Below, in pieces: positions 10,851 through 38,883 of a DNA stretch of 64,000 nt. This stretch comes from Candidatus Omnitrophota bacterium (GTDB lineage: Bacteria; Omnitrophota; Gorgyraeia; Duberdicusellales; Duberdicusellaceae). Position 1 is the stretch's first letter. The number at the start of each line of letters is the position of its first letter. The position numbers were made by a program, and so were the translations under genes. The notes under the pieces are model-generated. The model made no database searches. It was not told where the DNA came from and worked only from the letters and a program-made list of their open reading frames with translations. Where the stretch lies: assembly GCA_021159015.1 (NCBI GenBank), contig JAGGSQ010000069.1, positions 1,332 through 65,331 of the forward strand. The letters run 5' to 3'.

Positions 10851-10882
10851 AAATTATGGCAGATGCTGGTTGTTAAAGAAAA

Positions 10883-12096: not shown

Positions 12097-12106
12097 ACCC
12101 ACCTCC

Positions 12107-24309: not shown

Positions 24310-24424
24310 AATAAAAGAGTATTTAGATCTATAGTATATCTCATTTTTTTTCTTCCTGTCAATTCTTCTTGCACTTTTAAGAAGGAGGTTTAAAATAGTT
24401 GAGAAAGCTAAAAAGGAGGAAAAA

Positions 24425-24742
24425 ATGCCAGAGTTTGCAAGTCCCTTTTCCGGTCTTACCCCCGCAAAGAAACTAAGCAGCGAAGAATTGATCCGGGCCA
24501 TCCGCTTCATGGTAGCAGCAGAATACGAAGCCGTACAGATGTATATGCAGGTGGCAGAATCAACCGATAACAAATTAGCAAAAGCAGTACTAAAAGATAT
24601 CGCCGACGAAGAAAAAGTTCATGCAGGAGAGTTTTTGCGCCTTTTAAAGGCTCTAGAGCCGGAAGAAGAAAAGTTTTATCAAGAAGGCGCAGAAGAGGTA
24701 GAAGAAGAAATTAAAAAGACCGGCCGAAAAGGAAAATTTTAG
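24425..24742 (+). CDS. small ferritin-like/rubrerythrin-like diiron-domain protein
   Basis: AAEYEAV...DIADEEKVHAGEF matches the E...EExxH half-site pattern. An AGGAGG RBS sits 6 nt upstream. 105 aa, one of the few plus-strand genes. Confidence 0.6.
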   Translation: MPEFASPFSGLTPAKKLSSEELIRAIRFMVAAEYEAVQMYMQVAESTDNKLAKAVLKDIADEEKVHAGEFLRLLKALEPEEEKFYQEGAEEVEEEIKKTGRKGKF

Positions 24743-25734
24743 TGGTCAAGACGCTTCTTGCGGAAGAGGTCTAAAAAGCGGTCTTCGTATTCAGCGTAAA
24801 CATTCCAGCTGTCTAAAAGCTTTTTAAGTTCAGAGGCAAAAGAAATATCTTTCTCTGCCTGGCGAAAAAGATCTTCGATCTTTGCTCTTACTGACTGCGG
24901 CAATTTACTATACTTATTTAATTCTTTCTTGATCCGTTGAATATCTTCCTCACTAAGCGGTGTCTGTTCAGGGAAAGATGCCTCTCCTTTTAGATAGCTA
25001 ATCAATTTATCTATCTCCTCTTTTATATAATTACTGCGTTGAATAAGCAAACTAAAATCTATGTCTAGATTAAGGTATCGCCTGAGAGTATCCAATACTT
25101 TTAAAGTAGCGCGGGGATTTTCAATCTGAATAGTATAAAAAGGAATTTCCCCCAGAAGGCAGGCTCCCCTCATTCCCATTTCTTTAGCTACCCCTAGAAG
25201 CAAACCATTAAGACCACTAATTTGCCCCTCGTTTAAAATCTCCCCCCCCAATTTCTGTATATCTTTCAGCACTGCTGTATGGCTGGCCACTACCCAAACA
25301 CGAGGGTCCTGATTGTGGTCAATAGGCTGCGGCATAGCCGCAAAAGTAAATACCTCTTTAATCTTAAGGCTGGCAGAAAACTCTAGAATCTGGCGTGAGA
25401 AAATATATCCTTTATCCAAAGGCGGCTGAGCTTGAGATATAAACAAAACAGCGTCTCTTTCTTTCTGACGGCTAAAATAAAACGTTCCTTCTTCTATTTT
25501 GGGCAGCTCCGCAATTCCCCGCTGGCTAATAATACCAATAGGCTCAAAAAGTCCGCTTTTTTCTACTCTGGCAAACTCTTGAAAATTAAGAGCATTTTTA
25601 AGGAAAAGACCGGCTTTAAGCGACACCTCTCCCATGCCTGGCCAGCAAGCAATTAAATAGGGCTTCTTTAGCCTGGGGGATTTAAGCTTTCTTATCATCA
25701 TCTGGGTTATACCATCAATCGCAAAAGATTGCAA
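24739..25734 (-). CDS. PAC2-family protein (proteasome-assembly-chaperone-2-like fold)
   Basis: KPYLIACWPGMGEVSLKAGLFL and GQISGLNGLLLGVAKEMGMRGACLLGE match PAC2 family signatures. 331 aa with a C-terminal coiled-coil-like extension. Confidence 0.6.
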   Translation of the reverse strand: MQSFAIDGITQMMIRKLKSPRLKKPYLIACWPGMGEVSLKAGLFLKNALNFQEFARVEKSGLFEPIGIISQRGIAELPKIEEGTFYFSRQKERDAVLFISQAQPPLDKGYIFSRQILEFSASLKIKEVFTFAAMPQPIDHNQDPRVWVVASHTAVLKDIQKLGGEILNEGQISGLNGLLLGVAKEMGMRGACLLGEIPFYTIQIENPRATLKVLDTLRRYLNLDIDFSLLIQRSNYIKEEIDKLISYLKGEASFPEQTPLSEEDIQRIKKELNKYSKLPQSVRAKIEDLFRQAEKDISFASELKKLLDSWNVYAEYEDRFLDLFRKKRLDH

Positions 25735-25743
25735 CTAATAAAA

Positions 25744-27207
25744 TCAGAAACCAAACCAGCCCTCAACTGGAGAGGGGCCGTTTCCTATACCAATATGTTT
25801 AATGTGGCAAAATTCGAAAAACCCCGCTGGCCCCAAAACTCTGGCCCAGCCACTTTGTTTCATACCTCCAAAAGGAGTAGCAGGAGACATCTCGGCAAAA
25901 GTATTTATCCAGACTGTGCCTGCCTGAGCTTTACGGGCTAAGTTTTCTGCCTGCGCCAGATCTGCGGTCCAGATTTGAAGAGTAAGGCCAGAGGGATTCT
26001 TCTCCAAAATTTCTTCCGCCTCTTCTGCTTCAAAACTCTTAATCATCAATACAGGAGCAAAGAACTCTTCCCATACCAACTCTCTCAACTCCAGTAAAGT
26101 GGGCAAATAAAAATTAGTCCCTTCCACCCTCCTGCCTCCGCTTATAATTTTAGCCTGAGCCTCCCCTACTAGTCTCTTTACTTTCTTATCCACTTCTTCC
26201 AGATAAGAAGAACTAATCAGCGCCGCCAGATTAGCAGAAGGATCCTGGGGATCACCTAAATGTATTTTTTCTACTTTTTCCTTTAGCATTGTTTTTACCT
26301 GAGAAAAGACTTCTTCTTCTATAAGCAAAAGACTAACCCCAATACATATTTGCCCCTGTTTCATAAACGCTGCCGCCAATATATTATCAACTGCTCTTTC
26401 TAAATGAGCCGATTTGAAAATAAACCCTACATTGCACCCTCCCAGTTCACAGATAATCTTCTTAGGGTGAGAGGCACTTTCCCGATATACCTGCATAAAA
26501 GTTTTGCGGCTGCCGGTAAAAGAAAGAATATCCACCTCACTCTGAGCTAAAGCCTTTCCTATCTTTTCCCCTCTTCCGCTGACTATATTAATAAGACCGG
26601 GCGGCAAATCAAGCTTGTCCAGAAATTGAGCCAGTTTAAGAAGGGAAAGGCTGGCAAATTCCGAAGGTTTTACAATTACAGCATTCCCTGCGGCCAGTGC
26701 GGCGGCTACACTAAATCCAAAAATCATCAGAGGCACATTGTAAGGAAGAATTATGCCTGCTACGCCATAAGGCTCATAAGTAAAAATATCCCACCCCTTT
26801 TGAGAAGCAGGAGAAACCACAGAAAGTGATTCTAAAAAAGAGGCATAGTATTTAAAACAATCAGCGGCCAGAGGGACATCAACAAAGAGAGATTCTTTCA
26901 TAATTTTACCCACATCTTTACTCTCTATTTCGGCAAGAAGGGAAAGATTATCCAGAATAGTCTCTCCTATCTGTCGCAAAGTTTGTGCCCGCGCAGAAAA
27001 AGGCGTATTTCTCCAAATGGCCAGGGCTTGGCGCGATTTCTCTAAAGCAAAAGCCAGGTCGCGCGCTTCTGTCTCAAACATATACCCTAATACTTCCCTC
27101 TTCGCCGCTGCCTCACAAACAAGCCTATTGTTACTCTTCCTAAATTCCCCTCCTACATAGTAGAGATATTCCTCCATAAAACCTCCTGCTGTTTTAGCCT
27201 TCGACAT
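25744..27207 (-). CDS. NAD(P)-dependent aldehyde dehydrogenase
   Basis: ALDH catalytic Cys in QGQICIGVS. Glu in ELGGCN. GSRKTF/SGRGEKIG NAD-binding region. 487 aa. Confidence 0.85.
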   Translation of the reverse strand: MSKAKTAGGFMEEYLYYVGGEFRKSNNRLVCEAAAKREVLGYMFETEARDLAFALEKSRQALAIWRNTPFSARAQTLRQIGETILDNLSLLAEIESKDVGKIMKESLFVDVPLAADCFKYYASFLESLSVVSPASQKGWDIFTYEPYGVAGIILPYNVPLMIFGFSVAAALAAGNAVIVKPSEFASLSLLKLAQFLDKLDLPPGLINIVSGRGEKIGKALAQSEVDILSFTGSRKTFMQVYRESASHPKKIICELGGCNVGFIFKSAHLERAVDNILAAAFMKQGQICIGVSLLLIEEEVFSQVKTMLKEKVEKIHLGDPQDPSANLAALISSSYLEEVDKKVKRLVGEAQAKIISGGRRVEGTNFYLPTLLELRELVWEEFFAPVLMIKSFEAEEAEEILEKNPSGLTLQIWTADLAQAENLARKAQAGTVWINTFAEMSPATPFGGMKQSGWARVLGPAGFFEFCHIKHIGIGNGPSPVEGWFGF

Positions 27208-27304
27208 TTACCATTATACTGATTTACACTTTGTAGTCCAGCCGTACTTCTAAATAACAATTTTTCTTCCCCCCTATCTCTTCGCTCTGATTTATATAAC
27301 TAAT

Positions 27305-28705
27305 TTAAAAAGTATACTTCAACTCGCAGACAATCTGATTGTTATTGCGATACTGGCCGTTAGAACCATAAGCCGGACCCCAAAAGTGATGATAGCCTAA
27401 GGTAAGCCAGAGATTATCCCGCATCTCAAACTTAGTCTTAAAAGAGACCCGTCCGTCGTTGTCGTCGCCATAAATTATCAGCACTTCCGGCTTAATCCTC
27501 TCATATACAAAGTCTGTGGCTACCTTAAGGGTAACGTAGCTTTCTACTTTATCCATAAGCCCGTAAGTATAAGAACTCAGAGCGTGTTTGCCTTTAAAGG
27601 TAGGGTTGTTATGAATAAACTGGGCAAACTGCAGAGAGAAAAGCCAGTTTGTAAAGTAATATTTATCAAATCCTAATACATAGGTATATTTGTCACTTCT
27701 TTCGGTGTAACTTCTGTGCCCCTGGCTGCCATAATAAGTAGGCTCATTACGCAAGTAAGCAAATTCTCCTCTCAACGTCAACCCTTTCAGGAGGCCGGCG
27801 TTGGTAAAAGACTTGTTGAAAGAAAAACCGATGAGCTGCATTAGCTTGTGCCGGCGGGAATAATAATAATTACCCTTAGGCATACCTAAGGCGGGAATCA
27901 GACCGCCGGTAATTACTACACCATCGGAATAGGTATAAGCACTGGTAGAATAACCATAAAGCCAGTTGAGAGTGTAGTCTATGCCGGCAAATATAGAACG
28001 CCAGCGCAGACCAACTCGCGAATTTTTCAGTTTAGAAGAAGGCCGGTAAATCGCCGTACTCATACTGCCGCCGGCGGCTTCCATAATGCTTTTTACCGTA
28101 TCAAAATCATTCACTGCTTTGAAAGCAAAGGTATCGCCGGCCTTAGCCGAACGCGAAGCTTCAAAGTCAGGAATCAAGAGAAACTGTAAAGTGGAATTCA
28201 GCCAGGGCGAATACTCCACCTTAATCATCCACAAAGGGATTCTGATATCGGCAAAGTCGGGCAGCCAGTAGCGGGTCAAATCAAAAGGCATAACCCGGTC
28301 TAAAAAAGGCAGGCCGTCGGCCTGGCCCCAAACAACTTGCTGTTTGCCAATTCTCACATCCAGCTGGTCTGAAATATAATCCAGGTAGCAGTCGCGCAGC
28401 CATTCTGTTCTCTGCGTAGTGCCGGCTTTTTCCTGATTTCTGTCAAACGCCCCCTCTCTTATGCCGTAGGCAAAATCGTAAAAATAGCGCGGATGCACAA
28501 AGAGAGTCCATTCGTCTGAGATGCGGTATTGCGCTTCTAAATCAAGCGTATTGCGGAAAGATGAAAGGAACTGATGAGAGTTGTCATTGTTAGTCTGGAC
28601 CCATACTTCGGTTTTAACATAGCTGGAATATTCAAAATTATTGCCGGTTTGAGCCGCCAGAACAGATAAAGGAAATAAAAAACAGAAAAGTAATAGCTTC
28701 TTCAT
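27305..28705 (-). CDS. outer-membrane beta-barrel protein (DUF1302-like)
   Basis: Signal peptide MKKLLLFCFLFPLSVLAAQT. Aromatic-rich with alternating hydrophobic pattern. C-terminal ...CELKYTF, ending in the terminal Phe typical of OMPs. Confidence 0.6.
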   Translation of the reverse strand: MKKLLLFCFLFPLSVLAAQTGNNFEYSSYVKTEVWVQTNNDNSHQFLSSFRNTLDLEAQYRISDEWTLFVHPRYFYDFAYGIREGAFDRNQEKAGTTQRTEWLRDCYLDYISDQLDVRIGKQQVVWGQADGLPFLDRVMPFDLTRYWLPDFADIRIPLWMIKVEYSPWLNSTLQFLLIPDFEASRSAKAGDTFAFKAVNDFDTVKSIMEAAGGSMSTAIYRPSSKLKNSRVGLRWRSIFAGIDYTLNWLYGYSTSAYTYSDGVVITGGLIPALGMPKGNYYYSRRHKLMQLIGFSFNKSFTNAGLLKGLTLRGEFAYLRNEPTYYGSQGHRSYTERSDKYTYVLGFDKYYFTNWLFSLQFAQFIHNNPTFKGKHALSSYTYGLMDKVESYVTLKVATDFVYERIKPEVLIIYGDDNDGRVSFKTKFEMRDNLWLTLGYHHFWGPAYGSNGQYRNNNQIVCELKYTF

Positions 28706-28720
28706 TTTCTTACCTCCTTT

Positions 28721-29599
28721 TTACCAGCGGGAACGCATTAAGGCTTTTACGGTAAAATTATATTCACTAACCCCCTGGTCGTACTTTGTATCTTTCATCA
28801 AAATATCAGTGCGGTGGCCGGTCCGCAAATCTTTACACTCTAAAGACATCTGAGCAGGATATTTCTTATCGCCGGCTTTAGTCCAGACCCATTCCCGAAA
28901 AAGCGTCTTAAACAGCTTCCCGTTTTTATCGTAATACTCCTCAAAAATGCCGCCGCCGGTATCTTTATCTATCCACACCTTTCTTTTGGCATAATACCAG
29001 TGCGGCCTTTGGGGATAGCATTCTATAATAAAACACGGCTTGCCGGCGAGTTTAGTTTCTCCTGTTGCTTCAAACTTGTAGCCTTTAAAATTTTCTTCCC
29101 CAACTAATTTATAACTTTCATCTTCAAAACGGCGGGTAGACACCTCTTCTACGGTCATATCCGAGCCCAGAAAAGCATCGTCATTCTGAGAAGCAGAAAT
29201 CTTTCTTACCTTCTTAAGGGAAGGCAGCCAGAGCCAGACATCCTGCTCTCTTTTGGCATCTTCATAAGTCCAAGTTAGAACCGCTAATCCTTTAAGCGCT
29301 GTAGGGTAAGTAAAAGCTACGATATCTTTGTAAGAAATTCCCTCCTGACCTCCTTTTATCATCCGCATTCTTTTCCATATTCGTTTGCGCGTAAATCCAC
29401 TGCGGTCTACATATAAAACCTCCCCTATCTGCATATAATCACGGGCGAAAAAGGAATATTTGTTGTAGTAGGCAATGCGCATAATCTCATCGGCACTCAT
29501 TCCCTCCTGCGGTCGGTAAACTTTATAGTATTCCAGATTGGCCGCAAAAACTAAACTGCCAGCAAACAGCATTCCCCACAAAAGTCCTAGTTTTTTCAC
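28721..29599 (-). CDS. LolA-like outer-membrane lipoprotein-sorting / lipid-carrier protein (DUF1329-like)
   Basis: WLWLPSLKKVRKISASQNDDAFLGSDMTVEEV is characteristic of the LolA-like proteins encoded next to MMPL exporters. The likely start is the GTG (VKKLGLLWGMLFAGSLVFAANL signal peptide) at 29599, overlapping the MMPL stop. The ORF track extends the start to 29704. Confidence 0.6.
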   Translation of the reverse strand: MKKLGLLWGMLFAGSLVFAANLEYYKVYRPQEGMSADEIMRIAYYNKYSFFARDYMQIGEVLYVDRSGFTRKRIWKRMRMIKGGQEGISYKDIVAFTYPTALKGLAVLTWTYEDAKREQDVWLWLPSLKKVRKISASQNDDAFLGSDMTVEEVSTRRFEDESYKLVGEENFKGYKFEATGETKLAGKPCFIIECYPQRPHWYYAKRKVWIDKDTGGGIFEEYYDKNGKLFKTLFREWVWTKAGDKKYPAQMSLECKDLRTGHRTDILMKDTKYDQGVSEYNFTVKALMRSRW

Positions 29600-32046
29600 A
29601 CTCCACCTCCTGTTTTGAAAAAACTTACTTTTCTTCCCCGTCTCTCTACCCCCTTTTTTAATCTTCTCTTTACTCTTCCCCACAAAAAGGCCGGCTTTAG
29701 CCACCAGACCAGCAACGGAACCATTACTAAGGAGATAACCATATTAAGCACCAAGGACAGGCACAAAATTATCCCCAGCTTTGCCTGAAAGAGAATAGGA
29801 GAAAAAACCCATACCAGTATCCCCAGAGAAACTACTGCCCCACTGAAAAATACCGCTTTGCCGCTGGTAATCAAAGTATAATGGAGTATATCCTTATAAG
29901 TATGACGTTTCTGGCGCATCTCATCATACAAACGAGCCAGAATATAAATGCCGTAATTAATCCCCAGCCCTTCGCTTAAAGAGACCAGGGGAAGAATCTC
30001 GGTGGTAATAGAAATCCCCAGAAATCCCAAAAGAGAAAAAATAACTAAGTTGCTAAGAACAAGAGGCAGAAGCAGAAACCAGCCGGCAGTAAAAGAGCGG
30101 TAAATAAAGCTGACATAAAAGAAAATTAAAAGAGAGATAAAGAGAGCATTGGGAAGAATAGTTTTTTTAATGATATCGTTTATGGCATAGAAAATGCCAA
30201 TGTCTCCCCCCGCATAGAGAAATTTTATATCCTTGAATTTATGCTTTTGAAAGTACTGATGCGTTTTCTCCACCGCTAAATTTACCGTAGTTGATTTATG
30301 GTCGCGGAAATCAAATTTAATATTGCAGGATTTCTCGTCGCGGCTGATTAGATGGTCATAATCAGAGGGAAATCCCGAAAGCGTATAAAGAAACCAGTAT
30401 TGGGCAATAACATCGTCTTGGGAAGGAATTTTAAAATATTCTCTCTTGCCAGCAAACATAAACATATTTAAAGCTTTGACTGCATCTACCACGGACAAAG
30501 ACGATCCGACTTGTAGCACCTGCTGCTGGAGATACCTCTGAAAACTATCGATAGCCCTTAATTTATCAGCTTTAAGCAAAGAAGAGGAGGATTTTGCTAG
30601 AATATAGTAGGAATTTGTTCCTCCGAAATTGTCGTTAATAAATTTCTCGGCCCGGTTATAAGGGCTGTGGGGATAAAGATAACTTGAGCCTTCTGTATTG
30701 TCGCCAATAACTATTTTTTTTATCCCTCCCAGAGAAAGCAGGCCGGCAATAATGAAACCCGTAATTAAAATTGTGCCGGCTCTCTTATTCAAAGAGAAAA
30801 TACTTATCTTCGCCAGCATCCTATCTACCCACAGATGCCGTTCTTCTCTTTCCACGGCCAATATTTTAGGCCGGTGCAAAAATGACAAAACACAAGGCGT
30901 AAACATAAAGGAAGTGAAGAAGTTGGCGAAAATGCCCAGCCCGCTGGCCAGAGCCATACTTTTTATGGTAGAAAGAGGCACCATTACCAAAGATAAAAAC
31001 CCGAACCCGTCTGTAAATACACAGGCGAGCCCCGGCAGAAACAAATAGGCCATGGTATTTACTATAGCGTGCTTGCTTTTCATTTTAGGGCTGCGCATTT
31101 CCTCATAATAACGCTTAAGTGTGTGCACAGAATGGCTGATACCTAAAGAAAGAACAATAAAGGGCACCAAGATTGTAGCCGGGTCAAGCCGCAGGCCTAG
31201 AAGTTTCATTGTTCCCATACCCCAGATAGTAGCCATAGAAGAATCTAAAAGAGGCAGGAGTATGCCGCGGCGGGAACGAAAGGTAAAAAACAGAATAAGG
31301 GAAATCACCAGCATACTTACTGCCAATACCTTAAACATAGAAGGAAGGTAAAAATTAAGCCAGCCTTCTAAAATAGGACGGCCGGCAATATAAATCTCGG
31401 TGTTTTTGTCTTCATATTTTTTCTTCAACTTCTGCAAAGTAGAGAATATATAGCTGGTTTTTACTCCCGAATTAAAATCTACCTGGATAAAAGTGGACCG
31501 GAAATCACGCGAGACCATTTTGCCGTAAACATTGGGGTTAATCTCAATTTTTCTTTTCAATTCCTCCCTGCCTCTTTCGTCCTGAGGCGGATAACGCAAA
31601 AGGCGTTCTACAAAAAAACCCTCTTCGTCAGCTACAATATGTTTTATATGGCGGCTGGCTAAAGAATAAACGCGGCTGATATTTACACCCTTAACCAAAT
31701 ACAAATCTTCCGTTAAAGATATCAGCTTATCCAAAAACTTAGCATTAAGAATTGTCCCTTCCTTAACCCGCAGGGCCAAAGATACCTGGTTAAGGCCGCC
31801 GAAGATATGCGTAAGCTGGTGCTGCACTTCTACAAAGGGATGTTTCTGAGGCAGGAAATCTTCCAGGTGTGTTTCTACCTTTATCGTACCTAACACACTA
31901 AGAAAAAATACTGTTAACGCTGTGCAAGCTATAATGATATATATCCGCAGATGCACTATCCTGCGTGCCAGTCTATACTGCCAGCTACTGGTTAGACCTC
32001 TGCTTTCGCCTGAAGCATACTTTATTCTACCGGTGCCTGCTCCCAT
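29596..32046 (-). CDS. MMPL/RND-superfamily exporter (HpnN-like putative lipid exporter)
   Basis: 816 aa with two blocks of ~6 TM helices separated by large periplasmic domains, as in MMPL/SSD-type RND pumps. The start overlaps the upstream aldolase gene by 25 nt. Confidence 0.75.
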   Translation of the reverse strand: MGAGTGRIKYASGESRGLTSSWQYRLARRIVHLRIYIIIACTALTVFFLSVLGTIKVETHLEDFLPQKHPFVEVQHQLTHIFGGLNQVSLALRVKEGTILNAKFLDKLISLTEDLYLVKGVNISRVYSLASRHIKHIVADEEGFFVERLLRYPPQDERGREELKRKIEINPNVYGKMVSRDFRSTFIQVDFNSGVKTSYIFSTLQKLKKKYEDKNTEIYIAGRPILEGWLNFYLPSMFKVLAVSMLVISLILFFTFRSRRGILLPLLDSSMATIWGMGTMKLLGLRLDPATILVPFIVLSLGISHSVHTLKRYYEEMRSPKMKSKHAIVNTMAYLFLPGLACVFTDGFGFLSLVMVPLSTIKSMALASGLGIFANFFTSFMFTPCVLSFLHRPKILAVEREERHLWVDRMLAKISIFSLNKRAGTILITGFIIAGLLSLGGIKKIVIGDNTEGSSYLYPHSPYNRAEKFINDNFGGTNSYYILAKSSSSLLKADKLRAIDSFQRYLQQQVLQVGSSLSVVDAVKALNMFMFAGKREYFKIPSQDDVIAQYWFLYTLSGFPSDYDHLISRDEKSCNIKFDFRDHKSTTVNLAVEKTHQYFQKHKFKDIKFLYAGGDIGIFYAINDIIKKTILPNALFISLLIFFYVSFIYRSFTAGWFLLLPLVLSNLVIFSLLGFLGISITTEILPLVSLSEGLGINYGIYILARLYDEMRQKRHTYKDILHYTLITSGKAVFFSGAVVSLGILVWVFSPILFQAKLGIILCLSLVLNMVISLVMVPLLVWWLKPAFLWGRVKRRLKKGVERRGRKVSFFKTGGGV

Positions 32047-33008
32047 AATTTGAAAGTCCTTACTAATACCGGATACCAGCGGCTCATCTTAGTAAAATCA
32101 CCTTTAGTCTTTACCTTGCCTTGCGTAGAGGCGACAAAAGCATCCAGCTTGCGGTTGAAAACTTTTTTTAATATATCCGCGCGGCCAATGATTAAGAAAT
32201 CCACCCCTTCTGCTTCCTCGCTTACCTTAACTATGCGCCCAGCCTGGTAATGAAAGCAAACTGCCCTGCCGCTATCCTGGTCTTTAACCGCCAGCCGGCA
32301 GGTCAAATCATATTTCCTTCCCAGCTCCTGGGCCTGAGGGTCATTGTTAACCAATTCCGCCAGTTTAGCTATATGCGCGGGTGAAAGCAGTTTGTACTTC
32401 TTTAACGATCCCGGCTCCTGAGGCAGCTCTCTATCCGCGGCCAAAGCGGTGCGGGACTGAGATTTCAGAATCAGGTTTATTTTTGCCTGCTCCTCTAAAA
32501 GTTCAATGAGGCTGAACGCTTCTTTGAAATCCTGGCCTATGCTTACCACCCCGTGCTGTCCTAAAACTACTATATTGGAATCAGCCAGCGCCTCTAAAAC
32601 CGGTGCAATATGGGTAACCGTAGGAGTCTCCTGAGGAACAACTTTTATTTCTCCCAAATAAAATTTCGCCTCAAAAGAAAATATGTCCAGCCTGCCAAAA
32701 TAATGAAAAAAGGCTACTGTATAAGGAGAATGCGAATGCAGGACGACTTTGACGTGAGGGAATTTACTATGTATGCCTAAATGCAAACCCTTCTCGCTGG
32801 TAGCTTCTCCTTTTCCCTCCAAAACATTGCCCTTGCTGTCAACCATAAGAATATCTTCATAAGAAAGCTCTCCCAAATAACAGTCGTGAGAAGTTATAAG
32901 AATACCTTCGTCTACTTTTAAAGAAATATTGCCGCTTCTGGCGCTAACTAAACCCCGTTCATTCAGGCGGCGGGCCCAATAGATTATTTGTTCTTTTTGC
33001 TTATCCAT
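32022..33008 (-). CDS. class II aldolase/adducin-fold protein fused to a C-terminal SCP2-like sterol/lipid-carrier domain (Ald2/DrdA-like)
   Basis: N-terminal half has RRLNERGLVSARSGNISLK and the HSHSPY metal-binding histidines of class II aldolases. C-terminal ~110 aa (DFLIIGRADILKKVFNRKLDAFVASTQGKVKTKGDFTKM) resembles SCP2. I placed the start at MDKQKEQ (ATG 33008). Confidence 0.65.
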   Translation of the reverse strand: MDKQKEQIIYWARRLNERGLVSARSGNISLKVDEGILITSHDCYLGELSYEDILMVDSKGNVLEGKGEATSEKGLHLGIHSKFPHVKVVLHSHSPYTVAFFHYFGRLDIFSFEAKFYLGEIKVVPQETPTVTHIAPVLEALADSNIVVLGQHGVVSIGQDFKEAFSLIELLEEQAKINLILKSQSRTALAADRELPQEPGSLKKYKLLSPAHIAKLAELVNNDPQAQELGRKYDLTCRLAVKDQDSGRAVCFHYQAGRIVKVSEEAEGVDFLIIGRADILKKVFNRKLDAFVASTQGKVKTKGDFTKMSRWYPVLVRTFKLWEQAPVE

Positions 33009-33486
33009 CTCCTTCCTCCTTAATGAGATCAAGCCGAGGCTTCTCGACCTCCCCCAGAAGACTTTCTGCATACATAGGACGTCCGGCTAAAGTAGAAGCA
33101 TCACTATCAGAAAATTTATCTAAATCCAGCTCTGTCCCTGCTGCAAATTTCACATCCACATTGTGATATTTAGCTAATTCATATACATACAAAGAACTAC
33201 TTAAACACAAATATCCATCGTCCATCTTCTTCTGATAAAGAATCAGAAGCTCCTTTATTTTTTGCTGGTAAAAAAGATGCCCCAGCATATTATCAGTACA
33301 ATATAAAAATTCTAAACCAGCAGCAGATAAAGCATCTCTATTCCATCCCAGTCCCAATAAATACGGCCGCAACTCAGGATTTACCAATACGAACCCCCTA
33401 TGAAATTTCTCTTTCAAATAAATAACGGCCTCTTCAGACAAAATTCCCCAAAACAAAACAGCTTTTTTTATATTCGTTATTTCCAT
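33001..33486 (-). CDS. truncated eIF2B/MtnA-like paralog (C-terminal Rossmann-like half only; catalytic motifs absent)
   Basis: ALSAAGLEFLYCTDNMLGHLF...IKELLILYQKKMDDGYLCLSSSLYVYELAKYHNVDVKFAAGTELD parallels the GADR...NKIGTY...VPFYVAA region of MtnA, but lacks the GADR Asp and the upstream CN(T)G Cys. 161 aa. Confidence 0.5.
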   Translation of the reverse strand: MEITNIKKAVLFWGILSEEAVIYLKEKFHRGFVLVNPELRPYLLGLGWNRDALSAAGLEFLYCTDNMLGHLFYQQKIKELLILYQKKMDDGYLCLSSSLYVYELAKYHNVDVKFAAGTELDLDKFSDSDASTLAGRPMYAESLLGEVEKPRLDLIKEEGDG

Positions 33487-34430
33487 TTCCTCTTATCGTT
33501 CAGGCGCAGCTCCTCCAGCCCTACCCAGCCGCTAATCAGTTCTTGGGGCACAATGTCAAAACTGGGATATATAGCCTCTATATTCTCTTTATCAGGTATA
33601 TTCTCTAAAAACATAAAAACTTCCTGCGGGGGACGCTCTTCAATTCCAACCTTTTCTATAGAAAAATCATAAGGATATTGTACAAAAGCATAGACAGGAA
33701 TGTTGTAGATGCCAGCCAGACAGCTTAAAGCATAAGTTCCAACTTTATTAATAATATCTCCCTGTAAATTCGCCCTGTCCGCGCCACAAACTACAGCGTT
33801 AACTTTTTTCTCAGCCATAACTTTAGCAACCTGGTTGTCACAGATAAGAATAGTATTTACCCCTGCTCGCTGCAACTCCCACGTAGTAAGACGTGCTCCT
33901 TGCAGATAAGGACGTGTCTCGCTAACATAAAACCTGTATTCTTTACCTAAATTCCTCAAAGCCTCAGCCAGATAAATTAGCTCCCCGTTAATATTACATA
34001 TGGTAAGAATAGAACTTTGCTGTGGCAAGACCTCAGCTAAGGCGGCGCAGCGCCTGCGGCGGGCTTTGTCAAAACCGTCCAAAAATGTGGCGATTATTTC
34101 AGATAATGGCTTATCTTCTCTCAAAGACTTTTTAAGAAGAGAGGAAAGAGAAAAAAAATCAAAGGTAGGACGCGTGGCTTTGAATTTCTTGGCCACCAAG
34201 TCCGCCAGAGTACTTTTATCCTGGTACTCCTCCTCTAGCAGCTGGCAAGTATAGAAATATAAAAGCACCTGGCCGAAGGCCCGTGTCTTCATCTCGCGCA
34301 GGCAAAACAGGGCATCTTCTAAATTAAGCACCTCCAGATACTTCTCTTCCCAGGGCAGAAGTGTCTCATCCAGAACCAGAATTTTTTTGCCCTGCATCCT
34401 GACTGGAAACGAAAGAGGTGAATTAAACAT
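33477..34430 (-). CDS. mtnA: S-methyl-5-thioribose-1-phosphate / 5-deoxyribose-1-phosphate isomerase (eIF2B-family, MtnA/DrdI-like)
   Basis: LVLDETLLPWEE at the N-terminus. TICNINGELIYLAEA with the catalytic Cys. SETRPYLQGARLTTWEL. CGADRANLQGDIINKVGTY with the catalytic Asp. Confidence 0.75.
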   Translation of the reverse strand: MFNSPLSFPVRMQGKKILVLDETLLPWEEKYLEVLNLEDALFCLREMKTRAFGQVLLYFYTCQLLEEEYQDKSTLADLVAKKFKATRPTFDFFSLSSLLKKSLREDKPLSEIIATFLDGFDKARRRRCAALAEVLPQQSSILTICNINGELIYLAEALRNLGKEYRFYVSETRPYLQGARLTTWELQRAGVNTILICDNQVAKVMAEKKVNAVVCGADRANLQGDIINKVGTYALSCLAGIYNIPVYAFVQYPYDFSIEKVGIEERPPQEVFMFLENIPDKENIEAIYPSFDIVPQELISGWVGLEELRLNDKRKWK

Positions 34431-35163
34431 CTGAATCTAAAACAAATTCGAATACTCCCTTAATCATTTTCTCCTGAGCCTCGAACAGCTTAAAATCAGA
34501 AAAACCTAATTCTCCGGTTATTAGATTATCGGAAGCCAGAAGCACCGCACAACTCTTTTTGCCGTAAAGGTTAGCCAGGGTAACAAAGGGACTGGTCACC
34601 ATATCCACAGCAATGGCCCCTTTGGCGATGTAAGAGTTGACTATTTCTTTTGCCTCCCGGAACAAAGCGTCTGTTGTCCATATGCCGCCTCTATGCACTT
34701 TGCCTTTTTTCTCCATAACTTTACACAGCTTATCTGACAAGTCTTTATCTACCGCAGGCGAGAAATCATCCTTGACATAATAACGCGTAGCACCATCTCC
34801 CCGCAGGATTTTATCGGCAATAATAAAATTTCCTATCTCAATATCTTCTCGCAATGCCCCGCAGGAGCCCAGCCGCACCAATATGTCTATGCCGGCATTA
34901 CAGAGAAGCTCGGTAACAAAGGCGGAGTCGGGAGAATAAAAGCCGCCGTTGCCTACGGTAATCTTTCTGCCCTTATAGAACCCTGTCCAGAAAGTATAGC
35001 CTAAGAAGGTAAAATTCTTCGTCGGCCTCTCCAGCATATCCAGGCACAATTTAGCTCTCTGCGGCTGGCCGGAGACAAGAGCAATCTTGCCAAAATCGCC
35101 TTCTTTGAACTGTAAGTGCTCCAGCAAATCTTTCGGTTTTAAGTGGACATCCCGCTGCATCAT
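34423..35163 (-). CDS. DeoD-type purine/5'-deoxynucleoside phosphorylase (PNP/UDP family I)
   Basis: GQPQRAKLCLDML...TGFYKGRKITVGNGGFY...VRLGSCGAL aligns to E. coli DeoD (GDPLRAKYIAE...TGTYKGRKISVMGHGMG...RVGSCGA). 246 aa. Confidence 0.75.
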   Translation of the reverse strand: MMQRDVHLKPKDLLEHLQFKEGDFGKIALVSGQPQRAKLCLDMLERPTKNFTFLGYTFWTGFYKGRKITVGNGGFYSPDSAFVTELLCNAGIDILVRLGSCGALREDIEIGNFIIADKILRGDGATRYYVKDDFSPAVDKDLSDKLCKVMEKKGKVHRGGIWTTDALFREAKEIVNSYIAKGAIAVDMVTSPFVTLANLYGKKSCAVLLASDNLITGELGFSDFKLFEAQEKMIKGVFEFVLDSDV

Positions 35164-35213
35164 AACAAATTTCCTCCTTAATGTTTTTACTACCCCTGCT
35201 GCTCTGCAAAAGT

Positions 35214-36686
35214 TTAGACGTAAAGTTCGTCGGTTTGAGATGCTTTCTCAAAACGTGACATATTCTCCATATAAGAACGGAAGCAAAGCCCTACTAAAGG
35301 ATGATAAATCCTATTGTGCAGTATCCTTTCTACGCGTCCGGGCTTAGAATAGAATTCCCGCAAGGCCCAGGCTCCCAGCCTCCCAATAGCTTCCTGGGAC
35401 AAATGTTCAGTAGGAACCACAGGATGGTGAAAGTCCCAGGTTTTTAAATCGTCGAATTTGACCCAGCCTCTTTCTACATATTTAGGCCATATAGGAGAGC
35501 CAGGCATAGGCGTAAGATACTGTAGGGCGCAGATATCCGGGTCTATTCTGTCTACCGCTTCAAAACGCTTCTTTATTCTATATTCATCATCATTCTCAAA
35601 GCCCATCATCCAGGTAAGGACAGTAGCAATCCCTGCTTCTTTCAATTTAGCTACTGTCTCCTCTACCTGTTCTACGGTAATACCTTTGCCTAACTCCTCT
35701 AACTCTTCGTCCGTGGCTACCTCAATTCCCGCCAAAGCTAAAAAACAGCCTGCCTCTTTCATTTTAGGAAATAAATCTACATCCCGCAGGTAATAAGGAG
35801 CACGGCCTAAAAAGCACCAGGAAACCTTTTTGCTCAGACCCCGCTTAATCATATCCTCAATAAACTCTTCCATGCGCTGACGGGAGACATTGAAGCAGTC
35901 GTCCATCATGGTAACTACTTTTACCCCGAACTTATCGTGAAGAAGCTCCAGCTCGTCCGCTACGAGTTTGCCAGAACGAGCCCGAAAAAATCTTAAATCA
36001 GCGTTTCCCCGCGAGTCAAACTGCGACCACTCATAGCAAAAATTGCAACCGGCCGGACATCCCCGCGAGTTCCAGGTTTCTGTATAATGCTTCCAATAAT
36101 CATGCCCTACATATTTCTCCATAGGAAACAAATCATAAGCGGGCATAGGCAGTTCGTCCAGATTCTTTATTAACCCACGGTAGGAGGTAAGCACTATCTC
36201 TTCTCCCTCACGGAAAGCAAGACCTTTCACCTCTTTTACCTCTCTGCCGGACGCTATTGCTTCCACCAGCTCCACAAAGCTTATGTCCTGCTCTCCTACC
36301 AGACAATAATCAATCCAGGGGTTCCTCCTGAGAATCTGGCGCGGTGCAGAAGCATAAACCAAGCCGCCAGCAATAATAGTAATTTCGGGATACTTCTCTT
36401 TAACCAGCTTGGCTGCCTGATTATAACGGTAAACCACTGCCGCCCCTCCGGTAGTATGCAGAATATCTCCTATATGAATGATGTCCGGACGGGCTTTACC
36501 AATCTCCTCCAGCATCTGCTCGTTGCTCATTTCCCAGGCGCGACAGTCCAGAACCTGCAAAGCATATTCGGGATGCTTCTGGCGCAGAAGCGCGGCTATT
36601 TGCGCCTGCCCTATATTGGGCGCACGGTGTTTCCCCCAGGTTGACCAGGCACCTAAATTGGGCTGAAGAAACATTACTTTCATCAT
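35214..36686 (-). CDS. B12-binding-domain radical SAM protein (class B rSAM)
   Basis: N-terminal cobalamin-binding Rossmann-like domain, then the CPAGCNFCYEW CxxxCxxC rSAM cluster motif. 490 aa. Confidence 0.8.
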   Translation of the reverse strand: MMKVMFLQPNLGAWSTWGKHRAPNIGQAQIAALLRQKHPEYALQVLDCRAWEMSNEQMLEEIGKARPDIIHIGDILHTTGGAAVVYRYNQAAKLVKEKYPEITIIAGGLVYASAPRQILRRNPWIDYCLVGEQDISFVELVEAIASGREVKEVKGLAFREGEEIVLTSYRGLIKNLDELPMPAYDLFPMEKYVGHDYWKHYTETWNSRGCPAGCNFCYEWSQFDSRGNADLRFFRARSGKLVADELELLHDKFGVKVVTMMDDCFNVSRQRMEEFIEDMIKRGLSKKVSWCFLGRAPYYLRDVDLFPKMKEAGCFLALAGIEVATDEELEELGKGITVEQVEETVAKLKEAGIATVLTWMMGFENDDEYRIKKRFEAVDRIDPDICALQYLTPMPGSPIWPKYVERGWVKFDDLKTWDFHHPVVPTEHLSQEAIGRLGAWALREFYSKPGRVERILHNRIYHPLVGLCFRSYMENMSRFEKASQTDELYV

Positions 36687-36697
36687 AAACTCCTTTT

Positions 36698-38254
36698 TCA
36701 GTTTTTTATTCGGTTTTCTGCCATATGCTTCAATCTGCCTTCAGCAATCTTGCCGCTGCGCGTCTTGGGAAGCTCTTTCACAAACTCAAAGTAATGGGGG
36801 ATTTTAAAATGCGCCAGCTTCTTCTTCAAAAATTCTCTTAATTCTTCCTCTTTGACTTCTGTATCTTCTTTACTTACTATAAATACTTTGGGCACTTCTC
36901 CCCGCAAGCGGTCAGAAACACCCACAGCGGCACACTCCTGCACCGCCGGATGCTCGGACAAAGCTTTCTCTATCTCCCACAAAAAAACTATCTCTCCTCC
37001 TACTTTCAGCATCTGCTTCTTCCTTCCGGCAATGTAATAAAATCCTTTCTCATCTCTGTAGGCTAAATCGCCGGTGCGAAAAAAACCCTCTGGCGTAAAA
37101 GAGGCTTCATTTAAAGAGGGATTTTTATAATAGCCTTTGAATACGGCTTTGCCTCTGATTAACAACTCACCTACCTCGCCTTCTTTCACCTCCTCTCCTT
37201 CCTCATTAACAAGTTTTACTTCTACATCGGGCGAAGACACGCCGATACTCTCGATATTAGCAGAATCGGGCGGCGTAACAATGTTAGGAGGAGAAGTTTC
37301 GGTCATCCCCCAACCGTTGAGAAGTTTTGCCTGTGGACAAAGTTTGTGGAATTTCTTAAGCAAGCGCGGCGAAGAGGGAGCGCCAAAAACGACTACATAC
37401 CTCAAGGTTTTTAGATTAAATCCCTCCAAATCTTTAAGGGTAAACAGCGCTACATACATAGAAGGCACTATCCAGAAAAAGGTAATCTTAAATTGCTCAA
37501 TATTCTTAAGGAACTGGCGGGGAGCAAATCTTTCCATTAACACAACCTGCAGACCAAAATATACCATTAACAGAAAATACACCCATCCCCCTGCATGAGA
37601 AAGAGGAATAGCACAAAGAACATTATCGTTCTCATTGATATCGGAAAGGAAATACTTTACTTGCCGCGGCGAATACTCAAGATTGTCGTAAGTAATAACT
37701 ACGGCTTTAGGCTGGCCGGTGGTTCCGGAAGTATAAGAAATTATAGCCTCCTCACCCCGAGCATTGTCTATAAAGGCTCCTGCCTTTTCCTCTGCCCCGT
37801 TCTTTATCAGCTGAGAAAAACTCAAAAAATCACCCTCCCGAGTTTCTTGTGTTTCATCAACTAACACTATCTTCACCCCTGTATCTCTCTCCAGCCTGTC
37901 ATAATTTATATTGATACGCCTCCTGGCAATAAGGATATCTACCTGGGCGTGTTTCAAAATGCTTATTAATTCCTCCTCGCTCAACATAAAATCAAGCGGC
38001 ACAGCACAAAAGTGCAAAGAGAATATAGCCGTGTAGGCTACTATATACTCCCAGCTATTGGGAAGAAATATACCTATGCGTGCCGGTTGGCAAGGAGTTA
38101 ATTCCCAAAGGCCTGCCGCACACTTAAGGCCTAATTGGTGCAGCTGGCCAAAGGTTATTTTTTTCTCTCCTGAAATAAGAGCCACCTTATCAGGGAATAA
38201 TTTACTCTTATTTTTTAGAAGAAGAGTAAAATTAAAGATTTTTCTCTCTTCCAT
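36698..38254 (-). CDS. AMP-dependent acyl-CoA synthetase/ligase (adenylate-forming enzyme)
   Basis: YTSGTTGQPKAVV (AMP-binding P-loop), GWGMTETS, FRTGDLAY and PKTRSGKI motifs. 518 aa. Confidence 0.85.
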   Translation of the reverse strand: MEERKIFNFTLLLKNKSKLFPDKVALISGEKKITFGQLHQLGLKCAAGLWELTPCQPARIGIFLPNSWEYIVAYTAIFSLHFCAVPLDFMLSEEELISILKHAQVDILIARRRININYDRLERDTGVKIVLVDETQETREGDFLSFSQLIKNGAEEKAGAFIDNARGEEAIISYTSGTTGQPKAVVITYDNLEYSPRQVKYFLSDINENDNVLCAIPLSHAGGWVYFLLMVYFGLQVVLMERFAPRQFLKNIEQFKITFFWIVPSMYVALFTLKDLEGFNLKTLRYVVVFGAPSSPRLLKKFHKLCPQAKLLNGWGMTETSPPNIVTPPDSANIESIGVSSPDVEVKLVNEEGEEVKEGEVGELLIRGKAVFKGYYKNPSLNEASFTPEGFFRTGDLAYRDEKGFYYIAGRKKQMLKVGGEIVFLWEIEKALSEHPAVQECAAVGVSDRLRGEVPKVFIVSKEDTEVKEEELREFLKKKLAHFKIPHYFEFVKELPKTRSGKIAEGRLKHMAENRIKN

Positions 38255-38332
38255 AAGTTAATTTTTATTAATAAAATTTTAATAATAATTTAAAAATACA
38301 CTACCCTTTTTCTTCCTCTGACCATAAATAAT

Positions 38333-38551
38333 TTATTTACGCGCTATATCTTGAATATTTAAGGCAATATTAATAAGGATAGAGGTTACACCCAAAATAA
38401 ATACACTTTTAGGAGTGACACTGGTTAAACCTAAATTGTAGTTGATACTCCATAATTTCAAAATAACGCTGGTAACAATAAGGATAAAACCCACGCTTAA
38501 GAAAAAATCTTCGAAAACGCGGTAATAATTTTTAAAACTCCCGCTTTCCAC
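38333..38551 (-). CDS. small 2-TM membrane protein (72 aa), paralog 1
   Basis: GTG start preceded by GGAGGCGAGG. Shares FEDFFLxxGFxLIxxSVxxxL...LGxTxVTxK..F......L.N..LNIQ with the adjacent ORF. Confidence 0.55.
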   Translation of the reverse strand: MESGSFKNYYRVFEDFFLSVGFILIVTSVILKLWSINYNLGLTSVTPKSVFILGVTSILINIALNIQDIARK

Positions 38552-38573
38552 AGCCTCGCCTCCTTTTTCATAT

Positions 38574-38786
38574 TTATACTTTATAAAAGGCCTTCACTAA
38601 ATTCTGGATATTGAGGGACAAATTAAAAAGTAAACAGGTGATAGCTGCCGCAAATATATCTTTAGCCGTAACGGTTGTAAAACCTAAATCATATTCCACA
38701 CCCAATAGCCGCATAGCTACGCTGGCAATTACTAATACAAAACCTGCTCCTAAAAAGAAATCTTCGAATAATTTATATTCTTTCAT
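38574..38786 (-). CDS. small 2-TM membrane protein (71 aa), paralog 2
   Basis: I placed the start at MKEYKLFEDFF (ATG 38786), preceded by GGGGGAGG. The ORF-track extension would overlap the divergent nfeD gene. ~45% identical to paralog 1. Confidence 0.55.
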   Translation of the reverse strand: MKEYKLFEDFFLGAGFVLVIASVAMRLLGVEYDLGFTTVTAKDIFAAAITCLLFNLSLNIQNLVKAFYKV

Positions 38787-38796
38787 CCTCCCCCTT

Positions 38797-38826
38797 TTTA
38801 CTAAAACAGCTTTTTTAGAATATAAT
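38797..38826 (+). promoter_or_regulatory. putative promoter of the nfeD-stomatin operon (TTTACT-18-TATAAT)
   Basis: Consensus -10 TATAAT at 38821-38826. Weak -35 TTTACT 18 nt upstream. About 57 nt upstream of the ATG at 38884. Confidence 0.35.
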
Positions 38827-38883
38827 AAAACCCTTAACCTGTCAACTGAAATTTTAAAGGGAAGCAATTTGACAGCTAAAAAA

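Follow-up and report, generated by a model that had tools for sequence, protein, structure and literature searches.

5-Deoxyribose salvage by the dihydroxyacetone phosphate (DHAP) shunt proceeds in three steps, through MtnP (or MtnN plus MtnK), MtnA and Ald2, and is encoded in Bacillus thuringiensis by DrdK-DrdI-DrdA; a phosphorylase variant of the shunt has been described in Clostridium phytofermentans. Here we describe a string of ten minus-strand genes from a Candidatus Omnitrophota bacterium (contig JAGGSQ010000069.1; the whole 64-kb stretch of DNA analysed is referred to as the window), in which the same three-step logic, enzyme families and clustering are found beside a class-B (B12-binding) radical S-adenosylmethionine (SAM) enzyme, hereafter B12-rSAM. 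Genes for a nucleoside phosphorylase (PNP), an isomerase of the MtnA type and an aldolase of class II are adjacent, the isomerase and the aldolase have DHAP-shunt features, and judged by their sequences the three appear to constitute a specialised phosphorylase variant of the shunt. The branch differs from the described shunt in having a DeoD/SsMTAP-like phosphorylase with a D-M-V motif instead of MtnP, a dead paralogue of the isomerase, and an aldolase that is always fused to an SCP2 domain. A hydrolytic aldehyde dehydrogenase (ALDH) and an acyl ligase are also fixed members, and the setting is a B12-rSAM/ketosynthase (KS) gene cluster, whereas shunt genes stand alone or beside sugar transporters.

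Three other systems invite comparison. According to work cited in PMC6079011, Streptomyces cattleya converts 5'-fluoro-5'-deoxyadenosine to fluoroacetaldehyde by means of a phosphorylase, an isomerase and an aldolase. The order of enzyme families in that fluorometabolite pathway (phosphorylase, isomerase, aldolase and, for oxidation to fluoroacetate, a dehydrogenase) matches the PNP, isomerase, aldolase and ALDH considered here, and the outcome would be a unit for building carbon chains, but our locus has no fluorinase or chlorinase (SalL/FlA) gene, its SAM-using enzyme is a class-B rSAM, and its SCP2 fusion and ligase have no counterpart in that route. The salinosporamide chloroethylmalonyl-CoA route starts from 5'-chloro-5'-deoxyadenosine. 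In hopanoid synthesis HpnH adds an adenosyl group and HpnG then removes adenine; the genes for HpnH, HpnG, HpnJ and HpnN resemble ours in kind, combining an rSAM enzyme, a PNP-family enzyme for a lipid-linked nucleoside and an HAE3 RND lipid exporter, but hopanoid synthesis has nothing that corresponds to the isomerase, the aldolase or the ALDH, and hopene cyclase and squalene genes are missing here. Finally, the ladderane clusters of anammox bacteria contain two FabF homologues (which may act as a KS/chain length factor-like pair), a dedicated acyl carrier protein (ACP) and a B12-rSAM, as does the larger gene cluster that we find in relatives of the organism studied here. The window itself lacks the KS genes, and the anammox clusters are without the nucleoside-cleavage branch, the cyclases and the ApbA-like reductase.

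The best explanation we can offer is that the string belongs to a conserved accessory module of Omnitrophota, built around cobalamin-dependent radical SAM chemistry on an acyl or polyketide-like substrate. As to its task, we tentatively favour a dedicated sink for the 5'-deoxyadenosine that the B12-rSAM would form while acting on a hydrophobic substrate, export being optional. In the literature that could be searched we found no description of this gene combination, and an earlier sequence-only reading of this DNA was not aware of one. As far as we found, this is the first link of a specialised 5'-deoxynucleoside-cleavage branch to B12-rSAM and FabF-type biosynthetic genes.

The ten-gene string

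The ten consecutive minus-strand genes that the sequence-only reading had placed between 25744 and 38254 were all found there, and its family calls for every gene of the string were recovered by Pfam and NCBIfam searches. In transcription order, with the regions that adjoin or separate them, they are:

38255-38900, no strand assigned, AT-rich divergent region upstream of the ligase gene, putative promoter region of the string (inferred from GC content and consensus sites)
36698-38254, minus strand, acyl-AMP/CoA ligase (LIG), first in the string (Pfam AMP-binding and AMP-binding_C)
35214-36686, minus strand, class-B (B12-binding) radical SAM enzyme, similar to BchE without being its equivalog (Pfam B12-binding and Radical_SAM)
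34423-35163, minus strand, DeoD/MTAP-like hexameric nucleoside phosphorylase, PNP (Pfam PNP_UDP_1)
33477-34430, minus strand, MtnA-like (5-deoxy/5-methylthio)ribose-1-phosphate isomerase (Pfam IF-2B)
33001-33486, minus strand, small open reading frame (ORF) of 161 aa, truncated, catalytically dead IF-2B/MtnA-like paralogue (no Pfam match; identified with hhalign)
32022-33008, minus strand, class II aldolase (DrdA/Ald2-like)::SCP2, corrected from the maximal ORF 32022-33071 (Pfam Aldolase_II and SCP2)
~32400-33008, minus strand, aldolase domain of that gene, and 32025-32399, minus strand, its SCP2 domain
29596-32046, minus strand, MMPL/HAE3-family RND inner-membrane transporter, start codon uncertain (Pfam MMPL)
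28721-29599, minus strand, periplasmic LolA-like/DUF1329 protein, corrected from the maximal ORF 28721-29704 (Pfam LolA_like and DUF1329)
27305-28705, minus strand, DUF1302 outer-membrane beta-barrel protein (Pfam DUF1302)
27208-27304, minus strand, 97-nt gap upstream of the ALDH gene, with a promoter-like site at 27240-27213
25744-27207, minus strand, NAD(P)+-dependent hydrolytic aldehyde dehydrogenase, ALDH, aldehyde to acid (Pfam Aldedh)

Two starts were corrected: that of the aldolase to Met22 of the maximal ORF, following the family alignment (giving 32022-33008), and that of the LolA-like protein to the GTG at 29599, which has an AGGAGG ribosome-binding site ahead of it and a signal peptide after it. 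With these starts the intergenic distances, in transcription order, are 11, 50, -8, -10, -8, -25, -4, 15 and 97 nt, the range of -25 to +97 nt given before. Public annotation (MCD6135031 onward) gives the proteins generic names only, such as 'radical SAM protein' and 'hypothetical protein'.

Conservation of the gene set in Omnitrophota

We used the aldolase::SCP2 family as a query, scanning one genome per species, and recovered 201 genomes. The genes of the string, and those of a KS block described below, were searched by tblastn in the best 80 of the 201 loci, and frequencies were taken from the 39 loci in which the aldolase is flanked by at least 8 kb in either direction. Almost all of the best 80 genomes are Omnitrophota. 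Near the aldolase::SCP2 gene we found the isomerase in 0.95 of the 39 loci, the ALDH and a B12-rSAM in 0.87 each, KS genes (a block with a FabF pair, ACP and cyclases) in 0.72, and the PNP in 0.69; the ligase lies beside the PNP or the rSAM in 0.67, the small ORF was detected by tblastn in 0.62, and the RND exporter trio is the least conserved partner, at 0.23. Every tblastn match (795/795) is on the same strand as the aldolase. This search, which the sequence-only reading had suggested with the rSAM and aldolase-SCP2 proteins as queries, thus showed a gene set that recurs co-directionally in relatives, in four gene orders and with aldolase identity down to ~40%. Because the same gene content is kept in four orders and to such divergence, chance juxtaposition of the core is ruled out, and it is this conserved neighbourhood, not the packing of the genes, that constitutes evidence beyond chance.

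The string is repeated in loci L004 (rSAM 83% identical) and L008 (rSAM 99%). L006 (rSAM 74%) has the order ligase/methyltransferase, rSAM, PNP, isomerase, small ORF, aldolase::SCP2, ALDH, MMPL, LolA-like, and L012 to L018 have ligase, rSAM, PNP, isomerase, small ORF, aldolase::SCP2, ALDH, MMPL, LolA-like, DUF1302, with the ALDH gene straight after that of the aldolase. In L001 and L009 (rSAM 76%), ligase, rSAM and PNP are followed by the KS block and only then by isomerase, small ORF and aldolase. Besides two FabF-like ketosynthases and an ACP, the block contains an ApbA-like reductase, a TIGR04076 protein, a PF04199 cyclase, an SRPBCC polyketide cyclase, an MFS transporter, a short-chain dehydrogenase/reductase, a class IV aminotransferase, an Amidohydro_2 protein and a second B12-rSAM.

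No KS/ACP/cyclase block gene was found by tblastn anywhere in the 64-kb window. Omnitrophota thus have a larger supercluster, which includes a FabF-like KS pair, an ACP, cyclases and a second B12-rSAM, and the string studied here is its reduced form. The sequence-only reading was right that its genes are functionally linked; it missed the larger supercluster, the block being absent from the window. We also took a census centred on the ketosynthases of metagenome contigs, which yielded 422 contigs: the KS/ACP/cyclase/rSAM core was present in 32/32 long loci, and PNP-isomerase-aldolase or ligase-PNP-isomerase-aldolase-ALDH was attached wherever the flank was long enough. 'Ladderane-like' clusters have been reported in Omnitrophota metagenome-assembled genomes (MAGs) by genome mining, with no function assigned. 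The supercluster is probably what such mining labels in this way, and the present gene set offers a functional handle on 'ladderane-like' clusters outside anammox bacteria.

A few loci depart from these patterns. In one sublineage a class I SAM methyltransferase gene (UbiE/CMAS-like; L006 1398-2126, L007 5844-6572) lies between ligase and rSAM. In two MAGs labelled Clostridia and Elusimicrobia (L052 7459-10208, L053 6975-9675) the aldolase::SCP2 gene occurs alone among genes for OsmC, a small outer-membrane beta-barrel protein and QueH, with none of the usual partners; we regard this stand-alone context as uninformative for function. We did not use P0245, a metagenome protein of 694 aa in which a truncated B12-rSAM core is apparently joined to a truncated aldolase::SCP2; it probably reflects a deletion, faulty assembly or a wrong gene call.

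Ligase and B12 radical SAM enzyme

The ligase scores below all NCBIfam cutoffs and comes nearest to long-chain-fatty-acid-CoA ligase (390 bits, cutoff 476); its nearest entry in the Protein Data Bank (PDB) is Archaeoglobus fulgidus FadD-1 (3g7s). The rSAM has a CxxxCxxC motif, CPAGCNFC, at C210. Hidden Markov model searches, which the sequence-only reading had proposed for refining its family, place it below every curated cutoff: 218/481 (score/cutoff) for BchE (TIGR02026), 142/578 for HpnJ and 85/360 for the ladderane-type TIGR04072. Its solved relatives are remote only (TokK, 51 bits), and it belongs to a large and uncharacterised family with 941 matches, mostly in Omnitrophota.

Phosphorylase, isomerase and small ORF

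The nearest PDB entries of the PNP are DeoD-type phosphorylases and the Sulfolobus solfataricus 5'-methylthioadenosine (MTA) phosphorylase (MTAP; 1jds). No NCBIfam cutoff is reached (DeoD 102 against 230, HpnG 43/187), and the protein is DeoD/SsMTAP-like, not MtnP. Among 48 cluster-linked homologs the phosphate site (G20, R24, R87, S90) and the catalytic D204 are invariant. The near-universal E-M-E ribose motif is replaced by D-M-V, with E179 changed to D in 48/48 and E181 to V in 47/48; Met mostly takes the place of His4, the ligand of the 5'-OH, and neither R43 nor R217 is kept. With these substitutions the D-M-V enzymes form a subfamily of their own, in which the sugar and 5' pocket is more hydrophobic, and the change of His4 to Met would suit a 5'-deoxy or 5'-thio substituent.

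The isomerase scores 165-173 bits on the NCBIfam MtnA families (cutoffs 271-279) and 80 on the ribose-1,5-bisphosphate isomerase model; its nearest PDB entries are MtnA proteins (1t9k, 2yrf), and it keeps both the catalytic Cys (TICNINGEL) and the catalytic Asp (CGADR). The neighbouring small ORF, correctly labelled before as a truncated isomerase-like protein, aligns to IF-2B residues 141-255 (hhalign probability 97.8%, E 8e-13; BLASTP E 3e-4), and both the catalytic Cys and the GADR motif are replaced in it. In one relative (L011 8598-10001) a single gene encodes the isomerase and the dead paralogue as one protein of 467 aa. Because of this fusion we propose that the two products act together, the small ORF being a probable non-catalytic partner subunit of the isomerase. 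It is not a homologue of the 94/147-aa ORFs of the KS cluster, as we had also considered, but an IF-2B paralogue.

Two other sugar-phosphate routes were considered for these enzymes and rejected. A ribose-1,5-bisphosphate/RuBisCO nucleoside pathway does not agree with the isomerase scores (80 bits against 165-173 on the MtnA models), and the window has no RuBisCO. For fucose or rhamnose catabolism the scores on FucA models are far under the cutoffs, and neither a sugar isomerase nor a kinase is present.

The aldolase::SCP2 fusion

The aldolase domain matches Pfam Aldolase_II with 125 bits, residues E93, H112, H114 and H173 are invariant in the family alignment, and the nearest PDB entry is 6btd, DrdA, a characterised 5-deoxyribulose-1-phosphate aldolase. 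The fused SCP2 carrier domain that the sequence-only reading had noticed is real and invariably attached. Its Pfam SCP2 score is 27 bits against a gathering threshold of 21.3; the C-terminal 125 residues are modelled by AlphaFold2 (AF2) with a pLDDT of 91.8, and Foldseek aligns them at a TM score of 0.82 to Thermus thermophilus SCP2 (2cx7), followed by UbiJ-SCP2 and the lipid-binding domains of alkylsulfatases. All 41 PDB matches at E <=1e-3 are SCP2-type. The domain is the most conserved portion of the protein, and a search of 1.84 billion representative proteins found this SCP2 subtype almost only in the aldolase fusion. UbiJ/UbiT-type SCP2 proteins, MFE-2 and alkylsulfatases share the fold (Foldseek TM 0.6-0.8 to SCP2, UbiJ-SCP2 and the C-terminal alkylsulfatase domains), and there the domain presents hydrophobic ligands to soluble enzymes; here, by contrast, it is fused to a sugar-phosphate aldolase, and ligand binding is predicted.

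Aldehyde dehydrogenase

The ALDH matches Pfam Aldedh with 376 bits. Because it carries the hydrolytic motifs of the Glu268 type (ELGG) and the Cys302 type (GQIC), we assign it the direction aldehyde to acid. Relatives mostly place the gene directly after that of the aldolase. The window ALDH is 52-55% identical to those ALDHs, and the window isomerase is equally diverged, which fits a relocated, fast-evolving orthologue.

The sequence-only reading had counted the ALDH gene in one operon with the rest. Three observations suggest that it is probably a separate or optional unit: the promoter-like site at 27240-27213 in the gap before it, which agrees with 10/12 consensus positions; its different place in most relatives; and a 1.24-kb insertion (11411-12650) with an opposite-strand PilZ gene exactly between the DUF1302 gene and the ALDH gene in the 97%-identical relative L008. 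Since this insertion parts the ALDH gene from its neighbour, co-transcription is not required.

Beyond the ALDH, a PAC2-family gene (24739-25734, minus strand) starts 9 nt past the ALDH stop, and a YjeF_N-domain gene (23620-24573, minus strand) comes next. PAC2 was never found linked to the cluster in the tblastn census of relatives. We rejected PAC2 and NfeD/SPFH as members of the unit, as they are not conserved beside the cluster in relatives, and likewise YjeF_N, whose gene is not in the relatives census.

The RND transporter trio

The MMPL protein has two stretches of Pfam MMPL (above the gathering threshold), a sterol-sensing domain and multiple hydrophobic segments; on NCBIfam it scores 190 bits on HAE3 (TIGR00921; cutoff 352) and 52/752 on HpnN. 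The LolA-like protein (LolA_like 141 bits, DUF1329 60 bits) has a signal peptide without a lipobox and is the counterpart of AmeB, and the DUF1302 protein (83 bits), which has a signal peptide and ends in YTF, corresponds to AmeA. In AmeABCD of Castellaniella defragrans, and in the DUF1302/DUF1329/BNR/RND co-fitness cluster of Shewanella and Pseudomonas, an HAE3-type RND protein, a LolA-like DUF1329 protein and a DUF1302 protein are encoded together; here, too, LolA-like/DUF1329 and DUF1302 genes lie beside that of the MMPL protein. AmeC, the BNR/COG4447 beta-propeller, was not found between or beside the trio in the window, L008 or L010. Cassettes of this kind have been connected with the breakdown of hydrophobic substrates, among them monoterpenes, p-cresol, phenanthrene, steroids and fatty esters; whereas AmeABCD is tied to degradation of hydrophobic compounds, the trio here is attached to a biosynthetic-looking cluster and is optional. 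The tripartite MMPL exporter of the sequence-only reading is thus a recognised type of envelope cassette, but it is not a fixed partner of the string, being present in 23% of the 39 loci.

Packing and transcription

The minus strand carries nearly the whole window. Computed on uncorrected maximal ORFs, the gaps of the string have a median of -8 nt, 78% of them <=20 nt, and the other same-strand gaps of the window a median of -4 nt, 79% <=20 nt. Since gaps are equally short elsewhere, we do not accept tight packing as a sign of a single operon, as had been proposed. A consensus scan for internal terminators and promoters, which by the sequence-only reading would speak against a single operon, gave match counts no higher than in shuffled sequence, and the site in the gap before the ALDH gene is the single intergenic candidate within the string. 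The genes of the string, the ALDH gene probably apart, may be co-transcribed.

Upstream of the ligase gene the GC content is 0.369 over 38001-40000, with minus-strand promoter-like sites at 38681-38653 and 38845-38817. A perfect plus-strand sigma-70-like match (38869-38897) faces the gene for NfeD, which together with SPFH/band-7 forms a pair (38611-40943, plus strand) divergent from the ligase; the position of this match suggests that the maximal ORF begins well upstream of the true NfeD start. An Rfam scan found no SAM or B12 riboswitch upstream of the string, the matches in the window being three tRNAs only.

Function of the module

Class-B rSAM methylases release one 5'-deoxyadenosine each turnover. 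5'-Deoxyadenosine inhibits rSAM enzymes, and its detoxification in situ, as the sequence-only reading had it, is plausible. In the scheme that we tentatively prefer, the ligase would activate a carboxylic acid, and the class-B rSAM would modify a hydrophobic substrate, consuming SAM and releasing the inhibitory 5'-deoxyadenosine. The D-M-V phosphorylase would convert this to adenine and 5-deoxyribose-1-phosphate, the MtnA-like isomerase, with the dead paralogue as its partner, would form 5-deoxyribulose-1-phosphate, and the DrdA-like aldolase would split the latter into DHAP and acetaldehyde, which the hydrolytic ALDH would oxidise to acetate. The SCP2 domain would hold the hydrophobic substrate or product and so physically tie the clean-up enzymes to the rSAM step. 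Where the AmeABCD-like RND/LolA-like/DUF1302 trio is present, it may move the hydrophobic product (or substrate) across the envelope. In most other genomes the KS pair, ACP, cyclases, reductases and second B12-rSAM would build the carbon skeleton. We infer the substrates, the direction of transport and the physical coupling from the families, catalytic residues, SCP2 fold and gene linkage observed.

A pair of genes found within the block in nine relatives bears on the sugar involved. They encode an LsrF-type thiolase for 3-hydroxy-5-phosphonooxypentane-2,4-dione (P-HPD; NF006081, cutoff 297, here 354 bits) together with a Zn-dehydrogenase resembling Tdh:

L010 12836-14712, LsrF-type thiolase/Tdh-like pair; also in L023, L025, L028, L029, L036, L039, L057 and L087

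P-HPD is the 4-oxo form of 5-deoxyribulose-1-phosphate, and oxidation of the latter at C4 gives the thiolase substrate. Because of this identity, the pair points to a small, unsubstituted 5-deoxy sugar as the metabolite. From these family assignments the pair may be a new outlet of the DHAP shunt, leading to DHAP and acetyl-CoA; we found no link between LsrF and 5-deoxyribose in the literature.

Several points weigh against by-product removal as the whole explanation. Salvage leaves unexplained why an SCP2 domain is universally fused to the aldolase and is conserved more than any other part of it, and does not account for the FadD/MenE-like ligase that is always at the PNP end of the block or for the loss of the ribose-binding Glu in the PNP (E181V, 47/48). 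A canonical MTA phosphorylase has been reported in most Gorgyraeia, so that the nucleoside branch is an extra one, tied to the cluster. Escherichia coli needs no DHAP shunt for detoxification, the shunt serving growth on 5'-deoxynucleosides. The rSAM is below the cutoff of every curated family, and the ALDH is probably a separate transcription unit.

If by-product removal is nevertheless its task, the module would be a clear natural case of removal genetically hard-wired to radical SAM chemistry, possibly in a physical complex through SCP2. For biochemistry there is now a defined set of proteins: the aldolase::SCP2, the D-M-V phosphorylase, and the isomerase together with the dead paralogue.

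Alternative explanations

The alternative that survives best, though we rate it as rather unlikely, is an on-pathway nucleoside route similar to that to fluoroacetate, in which a C5'-substituted or otherwise modified SAM-derived adenosine is a true intermediate, made by or downstream of the B12-rSAM. The PNP would remove adenine, the isomerase and aldolase::SCP2 would yield DHAP and X-CH2-CHO, the ALDH would give X-CH2-COOH, and the ligase would activate this acid. The product would prime the FabF-like KS/ACP or, in genomes like this one, general lipid synthesis, with SCP2 binding a hydrophobic X. Such a route draws the ligase, rSAM, PNP, isomerase, aldolase::SCP2 and ALDH into one continuous chemical line in which every gene has a role, and for the ligase, the ALDH and the SCP2 fusion it is no less neat an explanation than detoxification. 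Both the ligase-PNP and the aldolase-ALDH adjacency are conserved, the genes are embedded in the KS/ACP cluster in four orders, with the KS block between PNP and isomerase in L001 and L009, and the SCP2 fusion is universal. The altered sugar and 5' pocket of the PNP and the hydrolytic direction of the ALDH, aldehyde to acid, also agree with it, as does the accessory, cluster-tied nature of the module in a phylum where canonical MTAP is common; the S. cattleya route and hopanoid HpnH/HpnG provide precedents.

Opposed to this is the lack in the cluster of any enzyme whose family is known to produce adenosines substituted at 5': the rSAM belongs to class B and is BchE-like, neither HpnH- or MqnE-like nor a fluorinase/chlorinase. 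The aldolase is closest to DrdA, which acts on an unsubstituted 5-deoxy sugar, and the LsrF-type thiolase of some relatives suggests a methyl-ketone (acetyl) end, with X = H. A more specific form of the proposal, which we consider doubtful, makes SAM the carbon donor as well as the radical source: a hydrophobic modified adenosine, formed in a step that depends on the rSAM, would be trimmed to an aldehyde keeping ribose C4'-C5' and then become an acyl thioester priming the KS/ACP, with SCP2 carrying the greasy intermediate. If the on-pathway route holds, it would be a new way to make chain-starter units from SAM, in the lipids or polyketides of an uncultured phylum.

We think it improbable that the module serves scavenging or catabolism, with host-dependent or predatory Omnitrophota using exogenous 5'-deoxynucleosides or hydrophobic compounds the RND trio acting in uptake or tolerance and the shunt acquiring carbon, its role in pathogenic E. 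coli. It is true that the E. coli shunt supports growth on 5'-deoxynucleosides and is not for detoxification, and that DUF1302/DUF1329/RND cassettes have been linked to the breakdown of hydrophobic substrates. However, scavenging gives no role to the B12-rSAM, found in 87% of loci, or to the attached anabolic KS/ACP/cyclase genes; the trio is found in only 23% of loci, and no nucleoside transporter is conserved in the block.

That there is no functional unit, and that ligase and rSAM, a nucleoside salvage trio, and an RND cassette with ALDH merely abut in a compact, strand-biased genome, we consider very improbable. Packing and co-orientation are alike across the whole window, the RND trio occurs in only 23% of relatives and the ALDH is separable; yet the genes from ligase to aldolase::SCP2, together with the ALDH, stay linked to ~40% aldolase identity despite the four orders, all 795 of 795 matches are co-directional, the isomerase and small ORF exist as a gene fusion, and the flanking PAC2 and NfeD are not conserved beside the cluster. 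Chance adjacency is contradicted for the core by the census and survives for the RND trio alone.

Hardly credible, finally, is a known lipid pathway in disguise (the hopanoid side chain with HpnH/HpnG/HpnJ/HpnN, anammox ladderane synthesis or a BchE-type cyclisation), for although there is a weak NCBIfam likeness (rSAM to BchE/HpnJ/HpnR/TIGR04072, PNP to HpnG, MMPL to HpnN), antiSMASH-type mining reports 'ladderane' clusters in Omnitrophota and anammox clusters likewise combine two FabF homologues, an ACP and a B12-rSAM, the scores are far under the cutoffs (HpnJ 142/578, HpnG 43/187, HpnN 52/752, BchE 218/481, TIGR04072 85/360), the window contains no squalene-hopene cyclase or other hopanoid gene, and hopanoid and ladderane clusters are without a PNP, MtnA and aldolase branch. 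We accordingly rejected membership of the rSAM in BchE (below cutoff, no bch genes in the window) and among ladderane-type B12-rSAMs (TIGR04072, 85 against 360), and that of the string proteins in hopanoid HpnG, HpnJ and HpnN (below cutoffs, no squalene-hopene cyclase in the window).

The rest of the window

Outside the string the window carries housekeeping genes, among them those for the glycine cleavage system and LipA/LipB, FtsH, PurN/PurH, FolE, MnmE and EF-G, and an Rnf-like operon. Five ORFs of 244 to 695 aa (52999-55086, 42352-44343, 21226-21960, 2678-3502 and 12107-12865) have no significant Pfam family. Other features are:

4837-9622, minus strand, probable Rnf-type operon by gene sizes and order, in which the RnfB-like Fe-S protein (4837-5655) alone was tested
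10882-10954, 60839-60913 and 60928-61009, minus strand, three tRNA genes, the sole Rfam matches in the window
44397-50298, minus strand, lipoyl synthase, lipoyl(octanoyl) transferase and glycine cleavage P (two subunits), H and T in a row, which sets the lipoylation enzymes beside their client

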